Source of the DNA: Leptolyngbyaceae cyanobacterium
Lineage (GTDB): Bacteria; Cyanobacteriota; Cyanobacteriia; Phormidesmidales; Phormidesmidaceae
Reading direction: 5' to 3'
Assembly (NCBI GenBank): GCA_965263355.1
Contig: CBDHHL010000049.1
Location: 184,059 to 248,058, forward strand
DNA length: 64,000 bases
Translations under genes and position numbers: made by a program
The notes under the pieces: generated by a model
What the model was told of the DNA's origin: nothing
The model's database searches: none
Seen by the model: the letters and a program-made list of their open reading frames with translations, nothing else
Part shown: piece after piece, positions 1 through 12,286 of the stretch
Numbering within the stretch: position 1 is the stretch's first letter
How the letters are laid out: each line of letters starts with the position of its first letter

Positions 1-1512
1 AGGGCCCTCAAAGAGGGGGCGAATGACGAACAGGCTCTGCAAAACGCTGTTTTACGATACCTTGAAGATGTCAAAAAGGTGCTCTACGCTCGAATGATTG
101 ATCTTGTGCGTGCGGACAATCACATTGACATTAAGCAAGACACAAACAAGTGGCAGATGCTCGGGGAGTTGGTTCTAGCACAGGGAATTCCCATTGAATC
201 AGGGAAGGTGAAACCTGCTGTGTTAGGTATGTTTAACACGATTCATGAGCGGGGACTGCTGGACTATTACCTGGATGAATATATCAAGCGGGGGGAAATC
301 GAGCCAAGTAAGTTCACCCCTGCCATCAAGACCAAGATGCTGGATCATCTGGTCAAGCTCAATCTGAAGATAAATGACAACCTTAGCGTTGCCCAACAAA
401 CAGCCTATGATGAGTATTTTGCCTTAGCTTACAGTGAGGCGATTGGCAGTGGTTCAGCAACCAACGATCCCATTGACCAGGTTTATACAACTGGCTTTAA
501 GAATAGCTGGGATTTTACCGTTGATGATCTCACGAAGTACGACAAGCAAAATGTTGAACCCGAGAACATTCTGGCTGCCGGAGCCCTGGATTATATTTAC
601 TGTGTGGGTGAGGCAATGCGGGTTTTCGATGCAACCGATGCTCTGGTTTTACGCTGGGCCAGCGGTCTGTTAGATATTCCCGATGGTTCTACAGCCTCGG
701 CCCTTTATCGGTATTACAAACGCCGGGACGATCGCTCCTCAGCCGAAGAGCGGGCCATGCTCTACAAGCGTGTGCTAAACCGAGGCAACGGCCAGCTGCT
801 GACGCGCATGGTCGCCAATACTGGCTTTACCGATTTGTGGAATGAACTTATGCAGGCTGTCATGGCCTACATCCGCAAGTCAGAGCACAAAGTCTATTGG
901 AACTCCTGGCAAGACAACGGTTTGTCCTTGACCCACATCTACCGCGTCACCGAAGACTTGCAATATAATCTCACCCTGCATATGACTGGGATGGCCCATC
1001 TGCAAGTGACGGAAGACTATCACCATCTTAAAGAAGCCCTCGATATTATCAGCAGTCATGATATCCGCAACTACTATGGCGGCAGCAATCGCCAGAGCGT
1101 GTGGAACACCATTGCTCGGATTGTGCAGGAAGAGTTCCACGCTGGTCTCAATACTGAAGTCATCAAAACCATGGCCACTGAAGGCAATAAGGTGTTCCAG
1201 TGGTTGGCCAACTTTAATGAAAACACCGTAACAGCCGCTCAGTTTCAAACCTTTGCCAAAGCTGCCGAAGCCTGGGCGATCGCTCAATCAAGCCTCAGTG
1301 GCGGGCGTGTCGCTTATCACCCCCACTACGAATTACCCGGTGCCTCTCTGCCTGTACCGGCTGGTTACCACTCCAATGGTTATGGCCACCGCCACGGCCA
1401 TGGATATTTGGGTCATAACGCGCTGCCTGGGGCCGACTTTAACGGCAGCCACGGGCTGTCACAGGCGGAGGCTGTTTACGCCGATGCCAGTGATGAGTTT
1501 GACCAATGGTAA
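1..1512 (+). CDS. Conserved hypothetical protein, 5'-truncated by window edge; first gene of uncharacterised cluster
   Basis: Frame is open from base 1 (RALKEGANDEQ...) into the 477-aa ORF. Helical globular core (LYRYYKRRDDRSSAEERAMLYKRVL), His/Gly/Tyr-rich tail ending AVYADASDEFDQW. Confidence 0.85.
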   Translation, partial: RALKEGANDEQALQNAVLRYLEDVKKVLYARMIDLVRADNHIDIKQDTNKWQMLGELVLAQGIPIESGKVKPAVLGMFNTIHERGLLDYYLDEYIKRGEIEPSKFTPAIKTKMLDHLVKLNLKINDNLSVAQQTAYDEYFALAYSEAIGSGSATNDPIDQVYTTGFKNSWDFTVDDLTKYDKQNVEPENILAAGALDYIYCVGEAMRVFDATDALVLRWASGLLDIPDGSTASALYRYYKRRDDRSSAEERAMLYKRVLNRGNGQLLTRMVANTGFTDLWNELMQAVMAYIRKSEHKVYWNSWQDNGLSLTHIYRVTEDLQYNLTLHMTGMAHLQVTEDYHHLKEALDIISSHDIRNYYGGSNRQSVWNTIARIVQEEFHAGLNTEVIKTMATEGNKVFQWLANFNENTVTAAQFQTFAKAAEAWAIAQSSLSGGRVAYHPHYELPGASLPVPAGYHSNGYGHRHGHGYLGHNALPGADFNGSHGLSQAEAVYADASDEFDQW

Positions 1513-1581
1513 GTCCCATCCAAACATGTCTGGGCATCGCATCCGTGGGCATTGCAACCACAGTACTGAATAGGAATTGAG

Positions 1582-2643
1582 ATGATGACCAACAATGGAA
1601 ACTTAATGGAACAGGCTAAGCAATTAGCCCGTGAAGAATTTAGTCGCGATCAAACCTTCCAAAAGCTCGATCGTAGCCAACAGTTTGAACTGTATCGCGA
1701 TCGCGTAAATGACATCCACAACCAGCTTGCCCAACAACAAACTGTGTCGGATGCCATGTCAGCGGACCAACTCGTAAATAAGAAATTTCTCCAAAACCAA
1801 CGGATTGATCAGGAAGGTGAGCAGGCCGGTAGAGTGCTGCGGGACGTAAATTTCCCCAAGTTTGTTAAAGATCTGCTCAAAGGGGTGTTTGACGCCAATT
1901 TGACAGTGATGAAGGAGCAGATGGAATCCTACGTGGATTTGGTCGAGAAAATCACCAAGCCAGCCAGCGAGTTTATTAAGACCATTGACGATGTTGCGGC
2001 CTACACCTTTATGGCGGAAAGCCAGCCCAATCGTTTCCAGTTGTTACCGCCAAAGGCTCCCTCAAACCTGCCGGGGGGAACTCCGCCGGGTGTGGGAAGT
2101 GTTCCTCAGCTATCCACCAGTAGCGGCACGCAATTGGCGGATAAGGACGGTAATCCACTGAGTAAAGACGATATCCGTGGGGAGGTAATGCAGGCCAAAC
2201 TACAGCTTGCCAATCAGCATCAGCAGTTGTTGGAAGAGATGTTGCTGATGGGGGTCACCCGTCTAGTCGTAGACCACGGTAAGGTGAAGGCCAGCGTTGA
2301 TTTCCAAATTAAAGCCCATGAGGCTCTCAATGCAAGCGATAGTGCCTACGAAAACAAGCAACACTCCCAAACAAAAGGCTTTCATCTTGGTTACTCACCC
2401 TTTTTTCGGGGACCCTCTTTTGGTATTAGTCACTCCAAGACCAACACCCAAATCCAGATTTCAACTGCGGGTGCTACTGGTACCGGAACAACGGACGAAA
2501 CGACCAAGGTCCATGGCGAAGTGGAAATCAACTTCAAGTCAGATTACTTCAAGTTGGATAATTTCCGCGATATCTTAGCCCAGACTAAACCCAAAACGGA
2601 CCAGAAAGACAAGACCCAACCGGTTGACCAATCGGAGTCTTAA
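1582..2643 (+). CDS. Hypothetical protein with helical N-half and Ser/Thr/Gly-rich beta-hairpin C-half
   Basis: 353-aa ORF with AGGA RBS upstream. Motifs VNFPKFVKDLLKGVFDA, LLMGVTRLVVDHGKVKASVDF, GEVEINFKSDYF. Confidence 0.85.
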   Translation: MMTNNGNLMEQAKQLAREEFSRDQTFQKLDRSQQFELYRDRVNDIHNQLAQQQTVSDAMSADQLVNKKFLQNQRIDQEGEQAGRVLRDVNFPKFVKDLLKGVFDANLTVMKEQMESYVDLVEKITKPASEFIKTIDDVAAYTFMAESQPNRFQLLPPKAPSNLPGGTPPGVGSVPQLSTSSGTQLADKDGNPLSKDDIRGEVMQAKLQLANQHQQLLEEMLLMGVTRLVVDHGKVKASVDFQIKAHEALNASDSAYENKQHSQTKGFHLGYSPFFRGPSFGISHSKTNTQIQISTAGATGTGTTDETTKVHGEVEINFKSDYFKLDNFRDILAQTKPKTDQKDKTQPVDQSES

Positions 2644-2679
2644 ACGACATTAAGCAACGGTTAGCGGAGAGTAACCCCG

Positions 2680-3015
2680 ATGGCGCTGGCGATTTTGCAC
2701 TACGAAGACAGCAATAGTACCCACTGCCGGTTTCGTATCGACATTGGCACAACAAATCGGTTCTATACCTATGCCATTGGCGATCATCGCATGTTGCAAC
2801 GCCATGGTCTGGTGGTGTTTGCCCAGCCAAAGGTGGTTTCACCTCTGTTGTCACTAGCGGCATACCGCCTGGGGCGGGGCGTTTTGACAATTCCCCACCC
2901 GCAGTTTGATACCCGTCATTGTTATGTGCAACTGATCAGCTATCGAACCGCAGATAAACAGGGGCCAGCCCTGTCCACCATCATTAGGGTCCCGTTGTTC
3001 TCCTCCAGTCGATAA
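2680..3015 (+). CDS. Hypothetical protein, possibly detached N-terminal domain of the next gene
   Basis: 111-aa ORF with GGAG upstream. Same frame as 3115..4824, separated by a single TAA. Confidence 0.65.
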   Translation: MALAILHYEDSNSTHCRFRIDIGTTNRFYTYAIGDHRMLQRHGLVVFAQPKVVSPLLSLAAYRLGRGVLTIPHPQFDTRHCYVQLISYRTADKQGPALSTIIRVPLFSSSR

Positions 3016-3029
3016 CATGCGGGTCTCGG

Positions 3030-3068
3030 TCTGTTATTCCAATCTGTTATCTCAATCTGTTATCTCAA
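3030..3068. repeat. 13-bp tandem repeat x3 (TCTGTTATYYCAA)
   Basis: TCTGTTATTCCAA TCTGTTATCTCAA TCTGTTATCTCAA read directly. Confidence 0.9.
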
Positions 3069-3132
3069 TGGCAACCGCGATCGCAATTGTCATGTCTTTC
3101 TCCCATCTGTAATTTTGTTTATCCGTGAAGCA

Positions 3133-4824
3133 ATGACCATGGATCACCAACCCACTTACACCATGTCTTTTGCCTACGACGAAATCCGCCCTGACACCTA
3201 CAGTCTGGGCCAGGGATTCTTAGGCAAGTTATTCAAAGGGGCTACCAAAGTCATATCCGGGGTTGTCAAAGGCGTATCCCACGCCATCCCTGTGGTCAGC
3301 AAGCTTGCCGGGAAGCTATTACCGGCCCTTATGCCTGCGTTAGAACCCGTTTTGGGTAAAAAAGGGGCCTCCCTGGTGGGGCAACTGGCTGGCATTTTAG
3401 GCGGCAGCGGCGGCAAGATAACGGATGTTCTCAAAGACCCTGCCAAAGTAGCCCAAATCGCTAAGCTTCTAAAGACGACTGGCCTGACGCAAAAACTGGC
3501 TCATGCGAAGGGAGAACCAGTGGAGGCCATGGGGCATTCGTACGGTTTTTCTCAAGGGTATGGGGCCATGGCCCCCACCTATGGGGAATACGGATACCCC
3601 GATGAAGAATACCAACACCCCGAGCGCATCCTAACCCAGCTGCTGGAACATTCGCTGCACCCAGAAACGTTGCAGGGACTGATGGTCGATACCCTACGTC
3701 CTGCCGTTATGCGAGGGATGGTGGTCCATGGCCTTATAGATACCTTTAAGCTAATTCCAGGGTTTCCTGATGCGTTGGAGCGGATGGTAACAGAAGAGTC
3801 ATGGTCCACAGGTCAACCACCCGCGATCGCAGGGCTGGCCTCCCACTCTCCCGAATACCCCTACCATCGGGTGGAAGCCGTCACCCTGCATTTTACGGAT
3901 ATTGAACCGCTGAGCGTAGGCGGGCGATCGCGGGTGCTTTACTACATCGGGGATGACCTGGCGTTTCCCCTGGAACTAGAGACACCTCGCCCCATCCGCC
4001 ACGGGACACTGCAGATTTTGGTCAAGTGTCCCGAGACGCTAAAGGTGATGGTGGAGCAAACGTTTCAGCTCCATCACCTCGTGTCAGGTGAGCTAGATAC
4101 AGTACCTTACCTGAGCCGGTCCCAGCTGCGATCGCTCCAACCCAATGCCGAGTATCTGATCTGTGCCGTTTTGACCTGGACGGCGCGCTCCAGCCAGAGC
4201 GGGCACGAACGACGCTTAGGCACCAGCACCAGTGTGTTAGCGACGCTGATGGGCAACTATATTTTTGACCAGCTAGACGGGGTTACTGAGACCTTTGCCC
4301 TCAACGATCCCCAGACGCATCGCCCCTACTGGCATAAAGTCTGGACGGGCGGGATGGCCACCGATGACCAAACCCTGGCCCTAGATTGCAAATACTATTA
4401 CGTCCTGGAGGCTGAGCCATCTCAGCATGCCCGCATGGAAACCCTTATCCGCATGGATGCCCACGGCGGCGATGCCTCCGGTAAATTAAAAACGGGGTTG
4501 GTATTGAGTCTCACCCAGCTCAATCAGCTAGCGGCCTGGATGTTCGAGCAGCCCCCCCTGGACACTGACGAAATCGTCGCCCTGGCCTGTTGTGAATTTT
4601 GCGATCGCTTTCACCAATTAGCCCGCACCCAGGTGACTTTTACCGGCGACGCTGGCGATCGCGCCACCCTTTGGGTCTATCCCGAATTCGATCAGCAGCG
4701 AGTGGTGCTAAAGCAGGTTAGCGATCGTGATGCCAATGGCCGCGTACAACAACTTGTTGACCACATTATTCAGTTCCCCATACCAACAACCGCTCACTTT
4801 GTAGGCACCACTACCGCCGTCTAA
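3133..4824 (+). CDS. Hypothetical protein with amphipathic Gly/Lys-rich N-terminal helices and beta-rich C-terminal domains
   Basis: ORF 3115..4824; first ATG at 3133. GFLGKLFKGATKVISGVVKGVSHAIPVVSKLAGKLLPALMP amphipathic stretch. Confidence 0.8.
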   Translation: MTMDHQPTYTMSFAYDEIRPDTYSLGQGFLGKLFKGATKVISGVVKGVSHAIPVVSKLAGKLLPALMPALEPVLGKKGASLVGQLAGILGGSGGKITDVLKDPAKVAQIAKLLKTTGLTQKLAHAKGEPVEAMGHSYGFSQGYGAMAPTYGEYGYPDEEYQHPERILTQLLEHSLHPETLQGLMVDTLRPAVMRGMVVHGLIDTFKLIPGFPDALERMVTEESWSTGQPPAIAGLASHSPEYPYHRVEAVTLHFTDIEPLSVGGRSRVLYYIGDDLAFPLELETPRPIRHGTLQILVKCPETLKVMVEQTFQLHHLVSGELDTVPYLSRSQLRSLQPNAEYLICAVLTWTARSSQSGHERRLGTSTSVLATLMGNYIFDQLDGVTETFALNDPQTHRPYWHKVWTGGMATDDQTLALDCKYYYVLEAEPSQHARMETLIRMDAHGGDASGKLKTGLVLSLTQLNQLAAWMFEQPPLDTDEIVALACCEFCDRFHQLARTQVTFTGDAGDRATLWVYPEFDQQRVVLKQVSDRDANGRVQQLVDHIIQFPIPTTAHFVGTTTAV

Positions 4825-4883
4825 GAGAGGCGCACAAAAATCTCTCCCCTTCTCCCCAACCGACTCATCCACGGAGCAAACCC

Positions 4884-5165
4884 ATGTCCTCTCCCTCTCC
4901 CCCACCCTTGCACTCCCCCTTCTCCCAGGTTGTAGAACAACTCACCGGCTGGGAAGCCCCCCTCGAAGATTCAACCTGGGGGCATCGTCTCACCGTGGAC
5001 GCCTTAAAGGTGACTATGCCCATAGAACTGAGCATTGACGTCGACAATACCGGCGCGGTCACAGTCAACGGGTCGGCCCCCACCCAAACGGTCGAAACCA
5101 CAATCATGCCAGTGTTTCATCGTGTGCGGATGCGTTTGACGGTGGACGAGGAAGCGACGCCATGA
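4884..5165 (+). CDS. Small hypothetical beta-rich protein
   Basis: 93 aa, GGAG RBS, ATGA overlap with the next gene (translational coupling). Confidence 0.75.
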   Translation: MSSPSPPPLHSPFSQVVEQLTGWEAPLEDSTWGHRLTVDALKVTMPIELSIDVDNTGAVTVNGSAPTQTVETTIMPVFHRVRMRLTVDEEATP

Positions 5166-5905
5166 ACACCACCAACCAGCCCTGGAACCTCAATTCCTTT
5201 ATCGACGCGCTGATCTACGAACTCGATCGCGCCCACGATACTTTGTCAGTAAAAGGCACCAACCGCAAGCTCACCTATATGGTCAAAGACTTAGATCTGG
5301 ACTTGCAGTTATTTCCCGAATTTGATGGAGATGCGGTTTACTTTACCACCGCTCAACCAGGTGACATCGGAGCCTCTAAAATCAGTGTGAAATTAGGGTC
5401 TATTCGCGACCATCAAATCCAGGAAATTGCCAAAAAACCTGTTAGCCATGCCGACATTGCCCTGGAAGAAACCCAACTACCGCTAGCCACGCGCAAAATC
5501 TTAAAGAAGCTAGGCATTCACTCCGCCGAAGACCTGCGCCACACCATCGAAGATCGCGGTATCGACCTAAACATTGCTACCGACGGCCAGGTCGATTACC
5601 AGCAGCTTACCGACATTCTCCACCAGGCCCACCGCCAGCACTATCCACCGACCGTCGCCAGCGCCAAATTTGACCAGGTCGACGGCCAGCCCGTCCTCAC
5701 CCTACAGGGCAAAAATCTCGCTGTCACCCAATCCACCAATGGCTTTCCCGCCGCCCTGCTCGATGGCCACCCCATCCCGATGTTGACTGCCAGGGAAGAT
5801 GAGATTCAGTTTCAGCTTGACCCGCAACAACTGCACAATCGCCCCGGACAGTTAAAAGTAGCACTGGACCCGTATGCGGTGGTGGCGATGAAATTGGCGG
5901 TTTGA
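5162..5905 (+). CDS. Hypothetical protein: helix+strand N-domain, HhH-like middle, IPT/TIG-like C-terminal domain
   Basis: 247 aa. KILKKLGIHSAEDL resembles a helix-hairpin-helix; PPTVAS...LTLQGKNL...LDGHPIPML resembles an IPT/TIG fold. Confidence 0.7.
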   Translation: MNTTNQPWNLNSFIDALIYELDRAHDTLSVKGTNRKLTYMVKDLDLDLQLFPEFDGDAVYFTTAQPGDIGASKISVKLGSIRDHQIQEIAKKPVSHADIALEETQLPLATRKILKKLGIHSAEDLRHTIEDRGIDLNIATDGQVDYQQLTDILHQAHRQHYPPTVASAKFDQVDGQPVLTLQGKNLAVTQSTNGFPAALLDGHPIPMLTAREDEIQFQLDPQQLHNRPGQLKVALDPYAVVAMKLAV

Positions 5906-5988
5906 TAGAAGTAACGAGTTGCGAGTAACAAGTTGCAAGTAATAACAACTAAGCATCAGCGACTAAGAACCAACAACTAAATAAACGT

Positions 5989-6020
5989 TTTTCACTTTTT
6001 ACTTTTCACTTTTCACTTTC
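5989..6020. repeat. Heptamer short tandem repeat (TTTTCAC)n, STRR-like
   Basis: TTTTCAC TTTTTAC TTTTCAC TTTTCAC TTTC; similar degenerate heptamers at ~10760-10810. Confidence 0.8.
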
Positions 6021-6040
6021 CCCCTCCCTTTTTCTCTCCC

Positions 6041-7255
6041 ATGTCTAATGCGTCTTCCTATTACAATCGTCTCCGATCGCTCGAATCTGAGCTGTTGGAT
6101 CGGGGTGGGGCGGTGTCAGCAGATAGGCCGGTTACACCGCAGCGGAGATTGCTGGATACGGGTGTTGAGACTTCCCACAGGAGCTGGATATCTCCCGGTT
6201 GGCGAAGAGAAGGAGCCCATCGAGAACAGTGGCCATCGCAGCCAAGTGACATATCTAGCGGTAATCGACTGCTAGGGTTGGCACACCATTTGGATCGGGG
6301 GCGTGTCAGCGCCTCAGCTACCCCTGAGAGAGTATCACCTTCGGTCTCCTCAGCTCGGCGTTCTGTCGCTGACAACGGCTTTGCAGCCTATGTCTTTGAT
6401 CAGGGTGAGCACATCCAGGTGGGCTACAGACCAAAGGTGTCTCTCCCAGAAGATGAAGTGGAGGATTGGGCAGATGAAGCGCCCGACTGGACTGATCAGT
6501 GGGATAACCACTGGGACGGTGACTGGGAGGACGATGAGTCAGAATATTGGGAGCCTGACGAGGATCTGACAGAGGATGAACAGTCTGCTTGGGAGGAGGA
6601 AGAGGCTGAGTGGGAGGAGGACCGGCCCCAACCGTTGACCCAGCGACCACAGGCAGCGCCCGGTCACCCGTCGGCTCCTGGGCCTACTTCCAAAACACCG
6701 GTTCAGCGCAATGGGCAGCGCCCGGTCACCCGGACCGTCGTAGTCGATGACGTTCCGGCTAAGTCACCTAGCAAACCACCTGCCCAGCGCCCCGCCACGC
6801 AGACCGTCACGGTCAAACCGATTCCTGTAGATGACGGAGCGGCCCCGACAACAGAGGCCAGTCCGCCACCGCCAGCTGCCCGGAATGGCCATGCCGCCCG
6901 AGCACCCAAAGCCATCCCCCGGACCCGCCCGCCCAAGGCAAAGGGCACCACACCGCCACGCCCGTCGGCTCCGCGGCCCCCGACCCCAAAAGCGAACCCA
7001 GCCCCGTCTCCGGCCAGGGCGAATGGCAATAACCCGCACGCGGCCTTTGGCAAGCTTAGTCAATCGTTAAACCACGCCACTGCCTTCAACCTGGGCACTG
7101 TCCCCGTTGAAATCCCCTTCGATGACTTTGATCATCGCATTACCCAAGAGACCACCGCCCAGGCCCAAGCCCTAGAGCACCGCTTTAAAGAATTCGATCG
7201 CGTACTCACCCGCAAGCCTAAAACCAAACCTTCCGAACGCGCCCCGCCATCCTAA
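6041..7255 (+). CDS. Intrinsically disordered hypothetical protein (Trp/acidic tract, Pro-rich tract, short C-terminal motif)
   Basis: 404 aa. WADEAPDWTDQWDNHWDGDWEDD tract; C-terminal NPHAAFGKLSQSLNHATAFNLGTV...FDDFD...FKEFD. Confidence 0.8.
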   Translation: MSNASSYYNRLRSLESELLDRGGAVSADRPVTPQRRLLDTGVETSHRSWISPGWRREGAHREQWPSQPSDISSGNRLLGLAHHLDRGRVSASATPERVSPSVSSARRSVADNGFAAYVFDQGEHIQVGYRPKVSLPEDEVEDWADEAPDWTDQWDNHWDGDWEDDESEYWEPDEDLTEDEQSAWEEEEAEWEEDRPQPLTQRPQAAPGHPSAPGPTSKTPVQRNGQRPVTRTVVVDDVPAKSPSKPPAQRPATQTVTVKPIPVDDGAAPTTEASPPPPAARNGHAARAPKAIPRTRPPKAKGTTPPRPSAPRPPTPKANPAPSPARANGNNPHAAFGKLSQSLNHATAFNLGTVPVEIPFDDFDHRITQETTAQAQALEHRFKEFDRVLTRKPKTKPSERAPPS

Positions 7256-7312
7256 ATCTTACCTTTTACCTGTTACTCGTCACTTGTTCCTTTCTCTTCC
7301 CCCGAGGTACCC

Positions 7313-8641
7313 ATGACCCAAACTACCTTGCCCAACCGCCTATTTGCCCTCGACCAACATCTCACTCACAAACGCATGCATGCCAATGCGCCGCCTGGTA
7401 CGAGGGTAGCCTACCGATTTGATCAGGGGGCACCCATCCGGGCCATGGGGTATCCCGAATGGGATACCGACTCGGAGTACGCCGAGGCCAACGACTGGGA
7501 CGACGAGGACTTCGAGAATGAAGCCTATGCCGAGGCCAGTGATTGGGATGACGAGGACTTCGACGTCGATGGGGACTATGCCGAGGCGAGTGATTGGGAC
7601 GATGACGACCTCGAGGACGAAGCAGAATACGCCGAAGCCAATGCCTGGGACGACGAGGACTTCGAGAACGACTCGGAGTACGCCGAGGCCAGTGCCTGGG
7701 ACGATGACGACTTCGACGTCGATGGGGACTATGCCGAGGCCAGTGCCTGGGACGACGAGGACCCCGACCACGACGCCTATGCTGAGGCGAGTGATTGGGA
7801 CAATGGCGATTTTGAGGACGCCTCGGAGTATGCCGAGGCTAATGACTATGTGGATGCCTACGATGTCGACGCGGACCACCTAGATGGCTTAGAAGCGGAG
7901 GCCGACGAAGACATCTATGCCGAGGCCAGTGAGTACTCCGACGATGATGAAGCCGCCTATGCCGAGGACTTCGACGTTGAAGACCCCGGTGAGTGGGCGG
8001 AGGACTTTGACGCGGAGGACGACCCCGATGCCTGGGCGGCGGAGTTCGACCCAGCTGATGACTACGCCGATGCCGCTGGGGACCCTGCCACCTATGTCGA
8101 CGCGATTGTAGAAGCCCCGGTGGCCTATGAAGCCGCATCGTTTGAGCTGGGGGACGCACCAGAGGATTGGGCTACTGAGGACCAAACCATTACGGTAGAG
8201 GCGGCGGCTGTAGATTCCACTCCAGCTGACGACGATACCGAGGTGGCCCCGACATCGGCCCTGGCAGCGGAAGTTGCGGCCTTGCGGCACGATGTGCAGG
8301 CCTTAAGTCACACTCCGCAAGTAGCCTCGCCTACGTACCCCGCGACGGCGTTTACTACCGAGTTGCAGGAACTGCGCGACCAGGTGCGGGCGATGCAGGC
8401 CAACAAGCCGCCAACAGCCAATCCGGCAGAGGCAGAGGCCATGGCGGCGCAAGTGCAGGCGTTGAAGCGGGAGCTACAGTCGATGCGGGTACAGCGCTCG
8501 ACGGAAGCGCTCAGCTCCGGTTACTGGACGGCACTGGAACAGGAGCCATTGTTTAAGGCTTTCGACGACCAAATGGCCGCGTCCGTGGCACCCCCCGCGA
8601 CCCCAGAGGACATATCAAAATTATTAGCTGATTCTCCTTAA
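7313..8641 (+). CDS. Highly acidic repeat protein with C-terminal coiled-coil segments
   Basis: 442 aa, GAGG RBS. Nine YAEA[SN] repeats; three heptad helices near the C-terminus. Confidence 0.85.
   Translation: MTQTTLPNRLFALDQHLTHKRMHANAPPGTRVAYRFDQGAPIRAMGYPEWDTDSEYAEANDWDDEDFENEAYAEASDWDDEDFDVDGDYAEASDWDDDDLEDEAEYAEANAWDDEDFENDSEYAEASAWDDDDFDVDGDYAEASAWDDEDPDHDAYAEASDWDNGDFEDASEYAEANDYVDAYDVDADHLDGLEAEADEDIYAEASEYSDDDEAAYAEDFDVEDPGEWAEDFDAEDDPDAWAAEFDPADDYADAAGDPATYVDAIVEAPVAYEAASFELGDAPEDWATEDQTITVEAAAVDSTPADDDTEVAPTSALAAEVAALRHDVQALSHTPQVASPTYPATAFTTELQELRDQVRAMQANKPPTANPAEAEAMAAQVQALKRELQSMRVQRSTEALSSGYWTALEQEPLFKAFDDQMAASVAPPATPEDISKLLADSP
7478..7850 (+). repeat. Coding tandem repeat, 8 units of 48-51 bp (YAEA[SN][DA]WDDEDF...)
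   Basis: Recurrent TAYGCCGAGGCCARYGMYTGGGACGAYGA units; a ninth YAEAS copy at ~7916. Confidence 0.9.
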
Positions 8642-8864
8642 GGGGCACCCCCGCAAATCCAGGATTTCAAGAAAGACGAAGTCCCATTGGTCGTGGCTAT
8701 CCACACACCGTTACCGCCTGCTGAAGGGCGGCTCGCTTACCAGGCAACAAAGTGTAGTCAATAAGTCACACAACCACACCAGCCAAGGCCGCCGCTCCAT
8801 GCCATGTCTTCCCTTGAGTGACTCAAGGTCCACATCGGAACAAGCCACCTTATTCAGAGGAACT

Positions 8865-10301
8865 ATGAATAAACTACGAATGATCGAGGCATTTCTCTAC
8901 CCAGCTGCCACACATCCCAACCGCGAGGAGCCAACGGAACACCGCCTGCAACTAACCAGTGCATTAGGCTACGACCAAGTTCTAGCTGCGCGCCGGGCGC
9001 GATCGCACGAAGTTATCACCGAAGCAAAGAAAGCAAACGTCAAAAAAGACAAAGACTCGCTTTCCCAATTTTTGGGAACGTACATCGATAAAATCTACCC
9101 GAACACTAAAGCCGATGACAAATGGTTAATCACTGAAGAGCTTCTGCAGCAGATAGCTGAGACCAACTCGCCATATAGAACCTACGCAAACTCGTTGCTC
9201 AACACGACTTACAGCGAGGAGAATCTCAAAAGGAAGAAGTACTATATCCAGAACAACAAGGTAACCAAAGTCTCAGACCATTCCAGTAATCCACGCATCA
9301 AGTATTACCGCTACATGGGCAAGATCTACAAGGTCACTACGAAGAAGGCTAATGCAGAGTTTCCCAAGAATATAGGGAGTCGACTTAAAAATCTAATCAC
9401 CATTCTCACCCCGAAAAACATAAAAAGGAATACGAAAATCACTACGAAAATCACATGGATAGATGTCTCTCCCACCGGCTATGACAACGAGTACGACGCG
9501 TCAATTCTTCTTTCCTATTCTTATAATAAAAATGTGTCTGGCAGATTTCATTGTCACTTGCACAAACAATATAACCAATTAAATCCAAAGCCAGGAAACG
9601 GCTGGGTTGTTTTCACAGACGGCATCACAATCGAACTTAACAGAGAAGACTGGAAACCGTGGGCGCTGGCAGCATGGGGCGATGAGTTTCAAATCTCAAA
9701 ATACGATAAATCTGCCAATGTTATTGACGCTATCGCCAAGAGAATCCAAAAAAGGCCCGGAAAACACAAGGTAGAGAAAGCACTCGGTCTCAATCAATAC
9801 AAGATCTCGAACCTAGACTTCGATGGCATACCAATTTATCTAAAATACACAAAAACCGGAAAGGTAAAAACGTTAATGGTAGGCAACATGAGTATCTTCG
9901 ACGTAAATATCAAAGGCACGTCCAAGAATACGATATCCAAAATCCGTAGTGCCCTGGATAAGTTGGCCACCTACAAGAAATTCGGAAACGAGATTATTAC
10001 CGCAACACTAAAAGAATTGGCTGATATGATAGATTCGAAGACTAATAACGAAACGAAAGTTGAGTTACACCCCAAATACTCATCCACCATCAATATTATC
10101 GTCACTGAAAATAAGTCCGGTCGCTCCAATATTATTACCCGACCGCTTTCTATAAGCCAACAAACGGGCAAACCCCTTCAGTTGTGGTATGGCAACGACT
10201 CCATCATCTTGACTGAAGACGCCTCAATAAAGCTCGAGAACACTCTAAAGTTGATCGCAGGTTATGAAGATCTCGTCAACAGGCTCCAAAACCCTAAGTA
10301 G
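8865..10301 (+). CDS. Lys-rich, AT-rich hypothetical protein with cluster-type N-terminal leader (putative cargo/effector)
   Basis: ORF 8799..10301; AGAGG RBS precedes ATG at 8865 (MNKLRMIEAFL). Body visibly A-rich versus upstream genes. Confidence 0.75.
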   Translation: MNKLRMIEAFLYPAATHPNREEPTEHRLQLTSALGYDQVLAARRARSHEVITEAKKANVKKDKDSLSQFLGTYIDKIYPNTKADDKWLITEELLQQIAETNSPYRTYANSLLNTTYSEENLKRKKYYIQNNKVTKVSDHSSNPRIKYYRYMGKIYKVTTKKANAEFPKNIGSRLKNLITILTPKNIKRNTKITTKITWIDVSPTGYDNEYDASILLSYSYNKNVSGRFHCHLHKQYNQLNPKPGNGWVVFTDGITIELNREDWKPWALAAWGDEFQISKYDKSANVIDAIAKRIQKRPGKHKVEKALGLNQYKISNLDFDGIPIYLKYTKTGKVKTLMVGNMSIFDVNIKGTSKNTISKIRSALDKLATYKKFGNEIITATLKELADMIDSKTNNETKVELHPKYSSTINIIVTENKSGRSNIITRPLSISQQTGKPLQLWYGNDSIILTEDASIKLENTLKLIAGYEDLVNRLQNPK

Positions 10302-10323
10302 CCATCATAGCGCAGCAGAGCCA

Positions 10324-10355
10324 GTAGGGTGCGTTACGGCACAACCTAACGCACC
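10324..10355 (+). repeat. GTAG-type REP palindrome (possible terminator)
   Basis: GTAGGGTGCGTTA-cggcacaacc-TAACGCACC, 22 bp after the stop of the last cluster gene. Confidence 0.75.
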
Positions 10356-10929
10356 ATCACCGAGATACTACGTATACTGCTTCCATAAACCTCATCATAG
10401 CCTCAAGATCCAATAACGCTCCCACTCCACCCCTAACCTACCGCCACCAACGCCCAACATGTCTTTCAATCAAACATCATCTGCAAAAAACAAGTAATGA
10501 TTAACAAGTAACAAGGGAGAGGTAGGAGTGGTGTTTAGGGAAATACTTATTGCTTTTGCTTCAACGTCTTAATACTAGCCATCAGGATTTTGATAATACC
10601 GTTTGATTCATCAATCACCGGGAAAAACCATCGTCCCAAAACAACCTCAGTGCAATTAATAACCTGCTCAAATAACAACACTCAAACACTTCCCTAAGCA
10701 CAATTAAAAACTTCGCAATAAAATCTCGATAAGCTCTAACCATCCGCACCGTAAACAGCTTTACTTGTTACTTTTCATTTGTTATTTATTACTTTCACCT
10801 TTCACCTCAAAACACCATGCCCCATCCCACCCTCCACTCCCTCAACGGCGAAAAAATCCACTTTCACAAAGCCATCCCAACAACCCCTGTCACCTTACAA
10901 CCCAAAACACCAAAACCACACCACCCTCC

Positions 10930-11286
10930 CAAGCCTCCGACTGTTTCTCCCTGATGGTGAACTATCAAGTCATCGGTCAATATGTGTAAAACAACGGTGG
11001 ACAGTTTCTGTACACGCCCCATCACCACAACAGCTTGGATGTGTGAGTCTGCTTACTAGGGCAGCCCAACTATCCTGAAACCCAGCTAGCCTATCAAGAA
11101 GCAATCGCTCAGCTGGGGTCAATAGCCCTGTGTCACTATCGTCTGGGCCACATGACGCAGGCCCTCCAATGGTTAGAGCGGGCATTGACGCTCGATTCTA
11201 CCTTTGTCCCTGCCCGTAAATTGCACGCCAGGATAATGCGATCGCAGCTACAACTACCCCGCCAACCCCAAATCATCCTCAACTAA
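10930..11286 (+). pseudogene. Remnant of a TPR-containing protein, probably of the SAM-dependent methyltransferase-TPR type
   Basis: One frame reads CFSLMVNYQVIGQYV*NNGGQFLYTPHHHNSLDV*VCLLGQPNYPETQLAYQEAI...ALCHYRLGHMTQALQWLERALTLD with two in-frame stops and a clear TPR. Confidence 0.55.
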
Positions 11287-11725: not shown

Positions 11726-12286
11726 ATGTTTAAACTCTCTGCAGGTTTTGGGATTGCAGCTGCTAGCCTGCTCGCACTTTCGGCGGCTCCGGCGGCGGCA
11801 GCTCAGTTTACGGCCTCCTATGACTTTGGTGGACCGGCCACCGACGGTGATGTGTTTACGTTTGATTTTGAGGGAATGATCAATGGCGATAATGAAAATC
11901 TGATTGAAGGCGTATCCTCTCTATCGAATTTTCAGTTAGGAGGTGTTTCTGTTTTTGACCCCGGAGATCCGGGTATTTTTGGTGGACCTTTTTCGGTGGT
12001 TTTGGATGTTCTCTCTTTTGATGGCACTGCCAACTCTTTTATAGCAACCAACCCTATTGCTACCGATGTGCTTGCATTCCAATCTGGTTTTGGTGCAGTT
12101 GTCCAATCTAATGCGGTTTTTGGACCCTCTGGTTTTTCTGTCTCTGAGAGTTTTGATGCCGCCCGATGGTCTGTGGTTAGCCCCCCTGCCACCGCCGTCC
12201 CCGCACCTGCCCCTCTCCCAGGAATCATCGGCATGGGCTTTGCTTTGTGGCGCAAACGCAAACTAGCACAGTCCGACAAATCGTAG
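11726..12286 (+). CDS. PTPA-CTERM / PEP-CTERM sorting-signal surface protein
   Basis: N-terminal signal peptide and C-terminal VPAPAPLPGIIGMGFALWRKRK (Pro motif, TM, basic tail). Confidence 0.85.
   Translation: MFKLSAGFGIAAASLLALSAAPAAAAQFTASYDFGGPATDGDVFTFDFEGMINGDNENLIEGVSSLSNFQLGGVSVFDPGDPGIFGGPFSVVLDVLSFDGTANSFIATNPIATDVLAFQSGFGAVVQSNAVFGPSGFSVSESFDAARWSVVSPPATAVPAPAPLPGIIGMGFALWRKRKLAQSDKS

Follow-up and report, generated by a model that had tools for sequence, protein, structure and literature searches.

A 64,000-nucleotide stretch of contig CBDHHL010000049.1 from a Leptolyngbyaceae cyanobacterium, called the window in what follows, opens within a run of nine co-directional open reading frames (ORFs). 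Comparison with the loci of relatives identifies this run as the downstream part of a conserved operon whose gene order, obtained by protein clustering and profile mapping of those loci, is F2 (an S8 subtilase, hereafter S8), slot 1, F0, F1, F3, slot 2, F4, F5 and slot 3. In our view its product is probably a complex of several subunits, matured by a protease, through which exchangeable toxic or lytic enzymes reach other cells, most likely bacteria. A delivery complex is favoured because a fixed core is combined with a variable binder, tagged and swappable hydrolases or toxins, a maturase and two elements that look membrane-active. The operon itself is established by comparison of loci, and from the same comparison we infer assembly, cleavage, release and killing. 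It is apparently an undescribed, conserved conflict system: a literature search that left out most subscription journals found no description of it, although this clade might appear in the S8 neighbourhood survey of PMC9424270 or in the supplements of PMC3482391.

The features of the window copy are as follows.
1..1512, + strand: F0 (C-terminal 503 of 589 residues), a conserved all-helical core protein
1582..2643, + strand: F1, with a helical hairpin, an A-M-S motif at 1753-1761, a helical body and a beta-hairpin at about 2257-2547
2680..3015, + strand: N-terminal domain of F3 (ORF3), an ORF of its own in this copy but joined to the following one in relatives
3016..3138, + strand: diverged spacer replacing the F3 linker, with a 13-nt tandem repeat and a HIP1 site
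3139..4824, + strand: main part of F3 (ORF4), with a conserved Met, an S-L-G motif at 3202-3210 and a helix at about 3208-3279
4884..5165, + strand: F4, a conserved 93-residue protein, helix then strands, weakly Pepco/Trypco2-like
5162..5905, + strand: F5, with a helix-plus-strands N-terminus, a small middle part and an IPT/TIG-like C-terminal domain
6041..7255, + strand: ORF7, cargo-class, with an N-R-L-x-x-L-E leader and an A-T-A-F-x-L-G / F-D-x-F-D block
7313..8641, + strand: ORF8, cargo-class, with a leader, acidic Y-A-E-A-x-x-W repeats at 7473-7844 and a heptad-like region
8578..10470, + strand: exchangeable cassette (the end of ORF8, plus ORF9), delimited by contig joints
8865..10301, + strand: ORF9, a basic 478-residue orphan in the cargo position
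10328..10355, + strand: hairpin after the last gene (z -3.0)
10817..10954, + strand: ORF of 45 codons with a slot-2 tag, L-N-G-E-K-I-x-F ... T-T-P-V-T-L

A first-pass annotation of this DNA had described nine co-directional, tightly spaced genes that continue past the left edge. The ORF coordinates and the intergenic gaps with the preferred starts (69, 36, 123, 59, -4, 135, 57 and 223 nt) bear this out: the window starts inside F0, the operon's upstream genes would lie beyond it, and the start of F5 overlaps the F4 stop. The count of nine ORFs stands, but ORFs 3 and 4 each make up one half of a single gene. The same annotation had found no recognisable enzyme, phage-tail, type VI secretion or transporter motif and no obvious signal peptide, and our searches agree. 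None of the nine ORFs has a convincing match in Pfam, NCBIfam or PHROGs (best E value 0.009), and F0 is the sole window protein with a PADLOC row, a weak one (E 0.002). A hydropathy heuristic (not SignalP) found no signal-peptide-like or transmembrane stretch in any of the nine; the heuristic is strict, and a likely exported control protein in the window fell just below its cut. Sequence searches of the PDB gave no result for F0, F1, F3, F4, F5 or ORF9. The DNA resembles that of a filamentous cyanobacterium: the nearest relatives are cyanobacterial, the window contains 32 HIP1 sites and CHAT and TPS genes lie further right. The G+C content of the ORFs is 49-61%, except for ORF9 at 43%. Promoter and terminator scans gave results at chance level. 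A hairpin does follow the last gene, as had been claimed; it had been labelled a repetitive extragenic palindrome, but its left arm occurs once in the window.

Related loci came from two sources: 44 from a species-level genome collection, found by alignment of homologues of gene 1 (F0), and the best 80 of 199 metagenome stretches found by alignment of F1. Neighbours were counted relative to F1, and only where the flank was long enough. In the genome loci F1 is accompanied by F2 in 37/37, F0 in 42/42, F3 in 38/38, F4 in 29/30 and F5 in 29/30; the corresponding metagenome counts are 26/26, 65/65, 54/54, 24/25 and 24/24. Over both sets, an S8 subtilase lies upstream of F1 in every one of the 63 loci whose flank is long enough, which supports the earlier suspicion that a protease sits off the left edge. 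An ATPase had been suspected there as well, but none is conserved in the relatives' operon. The predicted pattern of a conserved core with variable last genes holds across both sets. Because the loci are close relatives found by exact patterns, these counts describe one branch.

F2 matches the S8 family well (PF00082 at E 2e-54 in locus L010) and its consensus keeps the D, H and S catalytic motifs. At about 430-450 residues it comprises a pro-region and a catalytic domain only, with no sensor. By the same heuristic, signal peptides occur in 0/41 peptidases, 1/23 slot-2 proteins and 1/66 slot-3 proteins, compared with 13/112 flank proteins. At one site S8 keeps Q/A/S in 50/62, M/L/F in 47/62 and S/G in 49/62 sequences; in L010 this motif occupies residues 124-126, and alignment with subtilisin BPN' puts the mature start near residue 127. 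A small P2, a large hydrophobic P1 and a small P1' residue suit subtilisin specificity. Of 38 catalytic cargo domains, 17 are preceded by the motif at a distance of no more than 43 residues, compared with 8.0 in composition-preserving shuffles (p 0.0008). The observed-to-shuffled ratio of the motif reaches 1.7 in F3 and slot 2 and 1.4 in slots 1 and 3, with flank proteins at 1.0. This distribution suggests cleavage by S8.

The variable genes carry slot-specific tags, in line with the earlier remark that the products share short motifs. The slot-1 tag, D/E-N-W-x-x-I-x-x-L-F, is present in 30/46 slot proteins and 0/112 flank proteins. The slot-2 tag, L-N-G-M-K-V-I-F, is mostly C-terminal (22/23 versus 1/112), and an N-terminal leader, N-R-L-L-x-L-E, marks slot 3 (35/66 versus 0/112), whose proteins also contain several A-x-[A/S]-F-D-x-x-E-P-I blocks. 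Because genes were assigned to slots by their position, a few in each set may be unrelated to the rest, and some are. As a DNA pattern the slot-3 leader is too degenerate to reveal whether it is used elsewhere in genomes, with controls giving similar counts. Among 34 slot-1 proteins scanned, 16 have peptidoglycan-binding, LamG, OAA or ricin lectin, beta-propeller or crystallin domains. The metagenome cargo scan covered 86 proteins, namely five plasmid proteins and 81 of 112 listed slot ORFs, from which repeats, fragments and ORFs that looked unrelated or wrong-frame had been dropped. Of these proteins, 20 carry domains of peptidoglycan-hydrolase type, eight more a C70 papain domain, two Ntox11 and one a lipase domain; the genome loci add EndoU, patatin, CAP and PAD. 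Hydrolases or toxin domains are thus frequent in slots 2 and 3. Wall hydrolases prevail in the classified cargo outside cyanobacteria. These domains fit the earlier suggestion of a variable payload and toxin delivery. In locus L003 (3639-9922) we note three tandem beta-propeller slot-1 genes with a transposase-like gene among them; these proteins end in a different Ser-rich tail, 'L-S-V-L-x-V-A-A-S'.

The full-length F0 has 589 residues (P0001) and an acidic tail, D/E-F-D-x-W. Its model shows helical domains (mean predicted local distance difference test, pLDDT, 82; predicted template-modelling score 0.50), and an ESM Atlas search for F0 gave short, unrelated matches with a top score of 0.77. 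We regard F0 as a candidate hub of the complex. Comparison of F0 with P0002 gives 85/165 identical positions within residues 1-167 and 417/422 from residue 168 on, and the contigs of three runs diverge upstream of window position 244. These alignments show that strains exchange an N-terminal module of F0, which ends at about window position 243. Window positions 1-243 encode a module that differs among close strains, the rest being about 99% identical, and it may co-vary with the upstream slot-1 targeting gene. In loci from outside cyanobacteria a slot-1 gene is mostly absent, and additional sequence is common in F0, at its N-terminus or internally (L039:5590-7908, L087, L097, L100, L107 and L109), as if the targeting part were fused into F0.

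In the F1 model, strands 232-248 and 303-319 flank a low-confidence, S/T/G-rich segment of 55 residues. Across homologues the hairpin region measures 87-125 residues (102 in 28 of 55 parsed), with a two-residue hydrophobic periodicity and a tip of G-G-hydrophobic-x-x-x-I-F-G-G; the linker motif across relatives is A-M-[K/A/G/S]-A. The pattern suggests that the region is one long hairpin of an oligomeric barrel, which would make F1 a candidate pore or needle subunit. The barrel is argued from the sequence pattern because no fold matched and the pLDDT of the central hairpin is low. A complex prediction with four F1 copies (residues 87-335) returned 'no answer' with a score of 0.00.

ORFs 3 and 4 share one frame; what separates them is a TAA (3013-3015) together with 41 codons that have diverged. 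All eight relatives tested span both ORFs as one protein of 650-720 residues, and 30 relatives are single proteins of more than 600 residues. A sequencing error at the stop was considered and is ruled out by a contig of run X2 that is identical to the window over 2556-3632; runs X1 and X2 belong to one study, which may include the window's source. In a relative of 94% identity, which comes from another study (X5), the spacer has lost 1 nt at 3063. The split falls just ahead of the conserved Met that precedes the helix. This helix, which follows the motif (F-L-G-G-L-V-K-A-I-S-S-V in one example), ranks, by the median of its hydrophobic moment, at the 99th percentile within its own protein and is net positive in 26/27; of 32 long F3 sequences, these statistics cover the 27 that were parsed. 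The helix is similar to membrane-lytic peptides of viruses and to antimicrobial peptides. The region after the helix is conserved without a family match.

F4 and F5 offer weaker leads. A TIG domain is found in 13/28 F5 members (best E 9e-5), and the F5 middle part gave weak RNA polymerase alpha-subunit rows in the PDB sequence search (E 0.14). One of 26 F4 members each matches Trypco2 (E 0.07) and Pepco (E 0.08); hhalign of F4 and F5 with Trypco2 was not significant, at under 1%. When profiles were ranked among about 600 locus ORFs, F4, F5 and F1 filled 21 of the top 22 non-self ranks for Trypco2 (10 sequences; non-significant E values of 0.04-1.2), and F1, F4 or F5 filled 21 of the top 22 for DUF2589 (nine sequences; E 0.02 or worse), with F1 first (E 0.02-0.5). 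We treat this enrichment as a lead only. DUF2589 (PF11655), a family with no described function, resembles F1 in its succession of helix, strand, S/T/G-rich hairpin with an aromatic tip, and strand, and is the nearest named family to F1 in the ESM Atlas (score 0.81), whereas the hhalign probability is at most 0.5% and F1 has no Pfam match to PF11655. In Bacteroidota we note DUF2589 genes as tandem paralogues (L132, L137 and L141 of G461; L128 and L138 of G480), which parallel the F1 paralogues of Burkholderia described below; by this analogy these neighbourhoods may represent a sister system.

In the proposed mechanism, S8 would mature itself at a small-[M/L/F]-S site and cut similar sites in F1, F3 and cargo. 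The cut would strip the N-terminal helical hairpin from F1, which would then oligomerise so that its long hairpins, possibly with F4 and the N-terminal part of F5, form a beta-barrel stem whose tip would insert into a membrane. Cut F3 would expose a cationic amphipathic helix that disrupts the membrane. Targeting proteins and cargo would attach to the core through their tags, F0 being its likely hub. Cytoplasmic assembly is proposed because no component carries an export signal; release would follow from lysis of some cells or another route. A more specific version, in which a delivery machine not derived from phage has an F1 beta-barrel needle of the order of 15 nm, a lytic F3 helix and three plug-in tags, is plausible in outline, and in its full detail we lean slightly against it.

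Several observations weigh against the delivery reading. The mechanism is proposed from gene comparison, and the operon encodes no export route. The S8 evidence comes from relatives' loci and not from the window's own genome. The F0 and F1 models match no known fold in Foldseek and VIA-align searches (best Z 6.9 and 6.7, within background), the central F1 hairpin has a pLDDT below 50, and the F1 site reads A-M-K-A in most relatives. The proposed cleavage motif, short and degenerate as it is, shows no overall enrichment in F1 (ratio 1.12) and is underrepresented in F0 and F4. The motif test was not blind, because similar motifs had been seen in cargo linkers before the motif was defined, and related cargo families are not independent in the motif count. 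As many as 55 of the 86 scanned slot proteins lack the catalytic domains counted above, most cyanobacterial cargo is unclassified and the ORF9 leader score is not significant. F3 was not detected in a distant Burkholderia pyrrocinia plasmid locus. No conserved immunity gene is evident in the relatives' ORF maps, in which ORFs under 75-90 residues were not called; this is odd because cargo such as EndoU acts in the cytoplasm.

The proposed logic is like that of AB-toxin beta-pore translocases, in which a pro-part is lost through a subtilisin-type cut, a barrel arises from a long beta-hairpin and separate enzymes dock and enter, but the PDB searches gave no sequence or fold match to them. The polymorphic toxin systems called S8-PTS share a stand-alone S8 peptidase, variable toxin domains and a cleavage that frees a caged cationic helix (PMC9424270), and provide a precedent for S8 unmasking of a cationic amphipathic helix in a toxin (10.1101/2025.07.24.666436). 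They differ in having three genes (peptidase, BetaH-toxin and immunity), Sec signal peptides and Gram-positive hosts (PMC9424270; 10.1101/2025.07.24.666436), whereas the operon has no signal peptides, five extra core proteins, three tagged slots and no evident immunity gene. The cargo gave no BetaH match in Pfam, no BetaH profile having been run, and its N-termini are short leaders followed by low-complexity sequence. Pepco (Trypco1/Trypco2) systems likewise place a small helix-plus-strand protein beside a serine protease (10.1101/2025.11.14.688446, PMC7159879), and proteolysis there arms a membrane-active beta-barrel. F4 and the F5 N-terminal part have the same helix-plus-strand pattern, at non-significant homology; the Pepco protease, however, is sensor-fused, the system kills its own cell, and there are no targeting subunits or cargo arrays.

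The Streptomyces umbrella particles are also multi-protein particles not derived from phage, with diversified lectin subunits and a polymorphic toxin (PMC11062931). They are built on an ALF-repeat scaffold, and no ALF match was found in the core or variable proteins of the operon, which further differs in its intact protease catalytic consensus, several cargo genes per locus and other hosts than those described for the particles. The likeness of the lectin subunits is one of analogy, not homology. Extracellular contractile injection systems, including the Photorhabdus virulence cassettes (eCIS/PVC), and type VI secretion systems (T6SS) share with the operon cargo that lacks signal peptides, overlapping domains (Ntox11, Tae4, lysozymes and amidases) and variable receptor-binding subunits (PMC3482391). 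No sheath, tube, baseplate, spike or AAA ATPase was found in the locus with Pfam, NCBIfam, PHROGs or in the conserved set of relatives, and TssC was not found in the five carrier genomes tested. The operon falls outside S8-PTS, umbrella particles, eCIS/T6SS and sensor-fused Pepco systems, since it lacks defining properties of each. Bacterial protein weapons otherwise use Sec or type V export, the phage-tail machines of T6SS and eCIS, type VII secretion or particles such as umbrella toxins. Here the genetic logic is weapon-like, yet five core proteins match no family and the two folded ones match no solved fold. If the delivery reading is true, a set of polyproteins without signal peptides (of lysozyme, amidase and AvrRpt2-like types) would gain a delivery route, and filamentous cyanobacteria an extra antagonism mechanism.

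Because export signals and evident immunity genes are lacking, a self-lysis or defence reading keeps part of our confidence. Here a trigger such as a phage or a developmental cue would lead S8 to arm F4, F5 and F1, as Pepco-like pore formers, and the F3 helix in the cell's own membrane, which would open the way to that cell's wall for the hydrolases, much as holins do for endolysins. Death effectors of the Pepco/Trypco type are beta-barrels that a protease activates (10.1101/2025.11.14.688446), and the non-significant Trypco2-profile ranks of F4, F5 and F1 point the same way. We nonetheless consider this rather unlikely: S8 is a stand-alone enzyme without a sensor domain, PADLOC yields only generic subtilase and IetS matches for it, and the variable lectin and peptidoglycan-binding subunits and the many wall-lytic chemistries point to foreign surfaces. 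Moreover, Pfam scans of 16 hand-picked upstream genes in non-cyanobacterial loci found sigma-54, LuxR, LytTR, AraC or BTAD regulators in 11, which suggests induced expression. Even if self-lysis were correct, the operon would be a new multi-component, protease-gated lysis system.

Alternatively, the operon could be an accessory cargo and maturation module for a contractile injection system elsewhere in the genome, with the tags acting as tube-loading signals. Ntox11 is described as PVC-delivered (PMC3482391), and the tube gene PF06841 occurs in 29/36 cyanobacterial carriers compared with 62/151 in a one-order sample, an excess confounded by the carriers' large genomes. The tube genes are unlinked, however (at least 0.7 Mb away in G1203 and about 250 kb in G1204), and none was found in 7/36 cyanobacterial and 4/7 other carriers, many of which are incomplete metagenome-assembled genomes, or on the two plasmids. 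No DUF4157 (PVC-metallopeptidase) occurs among the 78 and 86 proteins scanned, and five conserved core proteins exceed the needs of a loading module. On balance we find this improbable.

An extracellular structure that does not penetrate cells, such as a cellulosome-like scaffold, a filament, a sheath or a matrix, and that presents binders and lytic enzymes for digesting cell debris or prey walls as food would account for the lead of wall-degrading enzymes among classified cargo outside cyanobacteria, for short repeated tags that look like docking modules and for the Ig-like TIG domain in F5. It leaves unexplained the membrane-active-looking F3 helix and F1 tip, the intracellularly acting types EndoU, Ntox11 and PAD, and the presence of the operon in phototrophs, and we judge it quite improbable. 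The nanocompartment or virus-like particle around cargo that the first-pass annotation had offered is very improbable: protease maturation and membrane-lytic amphipathic peptides do typify non-enveloped virions and a shell fold in F3, F4 or F5 is possible, the structural models covering F0 and F1, but F0 is all-helical, F1 is helical with a long hairpin, no PHROG matched, no relatives were found in viral contigs or phage collections and no encapsulin-family match was found in five carrier genomes. Maturation of cyanobactin-type ribosomally synthesised and post-translationally modified peptides, considered for the ORF8 repeats and a cytoplasmic S8, was dropped because the loci share neither a conserved tailoring enzyme nor a conserved short precursor.

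Returning to the window copy of the proposed delivery operon, ORF7 and ORF8 had been taken for scaffold proteins and are better read as cargo carriers, because both the leader and the processing motifs of cargo are present in them and a toxin domain often forms the end of their orthologues. Their leader scores are 18.3 and 24.3, compared with a maximum of 6.2 in 112 flank proteins. ORF7 is Pro-rich and shorter than its orthologues, with no recognisable payload; ORF8 is 30% D+E and contains 51-nt tandem repeats, and its orthologues have a PAD domain in L002 and a long unclassified C-terminal extension in L008. Both match the carriers of the nearest relatives and end before any payload. Cassette exchange at the end of the operon is recent and took place between close strains: one contig of run X1 connects 8577 with 10471 through 1727 letters that differ from the window's, another joint runs from 8579 to 10525, and the contig from X5 likewise departs from the window sequence at 8577. 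ORF9, which lies within this cassette, was described as basic and foreign-looking, and its G+C content agrees, dropping from 0.55 to 0.42 at about 9010 (a changepoint matched by 0/200 shuffles). It is a probable payload and a swappable orphan without a significant leader, and no homologue of similar length was found. The start at 8865 is probably correct, with a purine-rich site upstream and a database protein of 478 residues.

The full slot-2 gene is missing from the window copy. The short ORF at 10817-10954, about 500 nt past the last gene, was found by tblastn from three slot-2 proteins (E 0.002-0.03). It consists almost wholly of the C-terminal tag of that slot and may be what is left of a cargo gene since lost, or else a tag peptide that stands by itself. 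Taken together, the window copy would be a reduced variant, with F3 split, the slot-2 gene missing, ORF7 and ORF8 without payload and ORF9 as its current cassette.

The operon occurs in cyanobacteria, Gemmatimonadota, Bacteroidota and Proteobacteria. The families are large, with 867 F0 representatives at 50% identity and 1037 F1 proteins, but the operon is rare: besides the centre genome, F1 was found in 1/300 cyanobacterial, 0/400 Pseudomonadota and 1/200 Gemmatimonadota genomes sampled. In an F1 tree, which left out L045 and partial F1 matches, the window copy lies beside those of Symploca, Baaleninema, Geitlerinema, Microcoleus and Anabaena, and Gemmatimonadota and one Saprospiraceae copy form a separate branch. 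The labels Pseudomonadales (L037) and Planctomycetaceae (L034) were not counted towards the range; these contigs may be mis-binned, because their F1 nests in cyanobacterial clades on short branches. Cultured carriers include Tolypothrix PCC 7601 and PCC 7712 (on a plasmid), Calothrix PCC 7716 and Baaleninema PCC 7105, the Tolypothrix plasmids carrying the standard version. The Burkholderia pyrrocinia plasmid locus is more distant, with S8, two F0, four F1 paralogues, F4 (E 1e-4) and F5 in another order, and adjoins a 1254-residue amidase/C92/C70 polyprotein.

Downstream of the operon the window contains a small TPR-like reading-frame fragment (11030-11240, + strand) and a 186-residue protein (11726-12286) with a hydrophobic N-terminus and a tail V-P-A-P-A-P-L-P-G ... 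W-R-K-R-K; the latter has no Pfam match at 1e-5 and we take it to be PEP-CTERM-like. Further on (23312-62248) lie dense CHAT/TPR, CHASE2 and TPS-domain genes typical of filamentous cyanobacteria, for which no link to the operon was seen.

Among the related loci, a small conserved protein without a Pfam match lies directly upstream of S8, often after a sigma-54 activator, at the following positions.
L062:1941-2228: small pre-S8 protein
L059:3075-3455: small pre-S8 protein
L065:64-357: small pre-S8 protein
L042:7651-8118: small pre-S8 protein

Adonisia turfae CCMR0081 has two operon copies (L011 and L012), of which L012 ends within F3 and is without F4 and F5. In L007 (15194-21191) three slot-2 genes alternate with two F4 copies, which suggests a duplicated cargo-plus-F4 unit. 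In L102 (8876-10387) a SIR2-like plus TIR protein stands right behind the cargo genes and is possibly a defence gene adjoining the operon.

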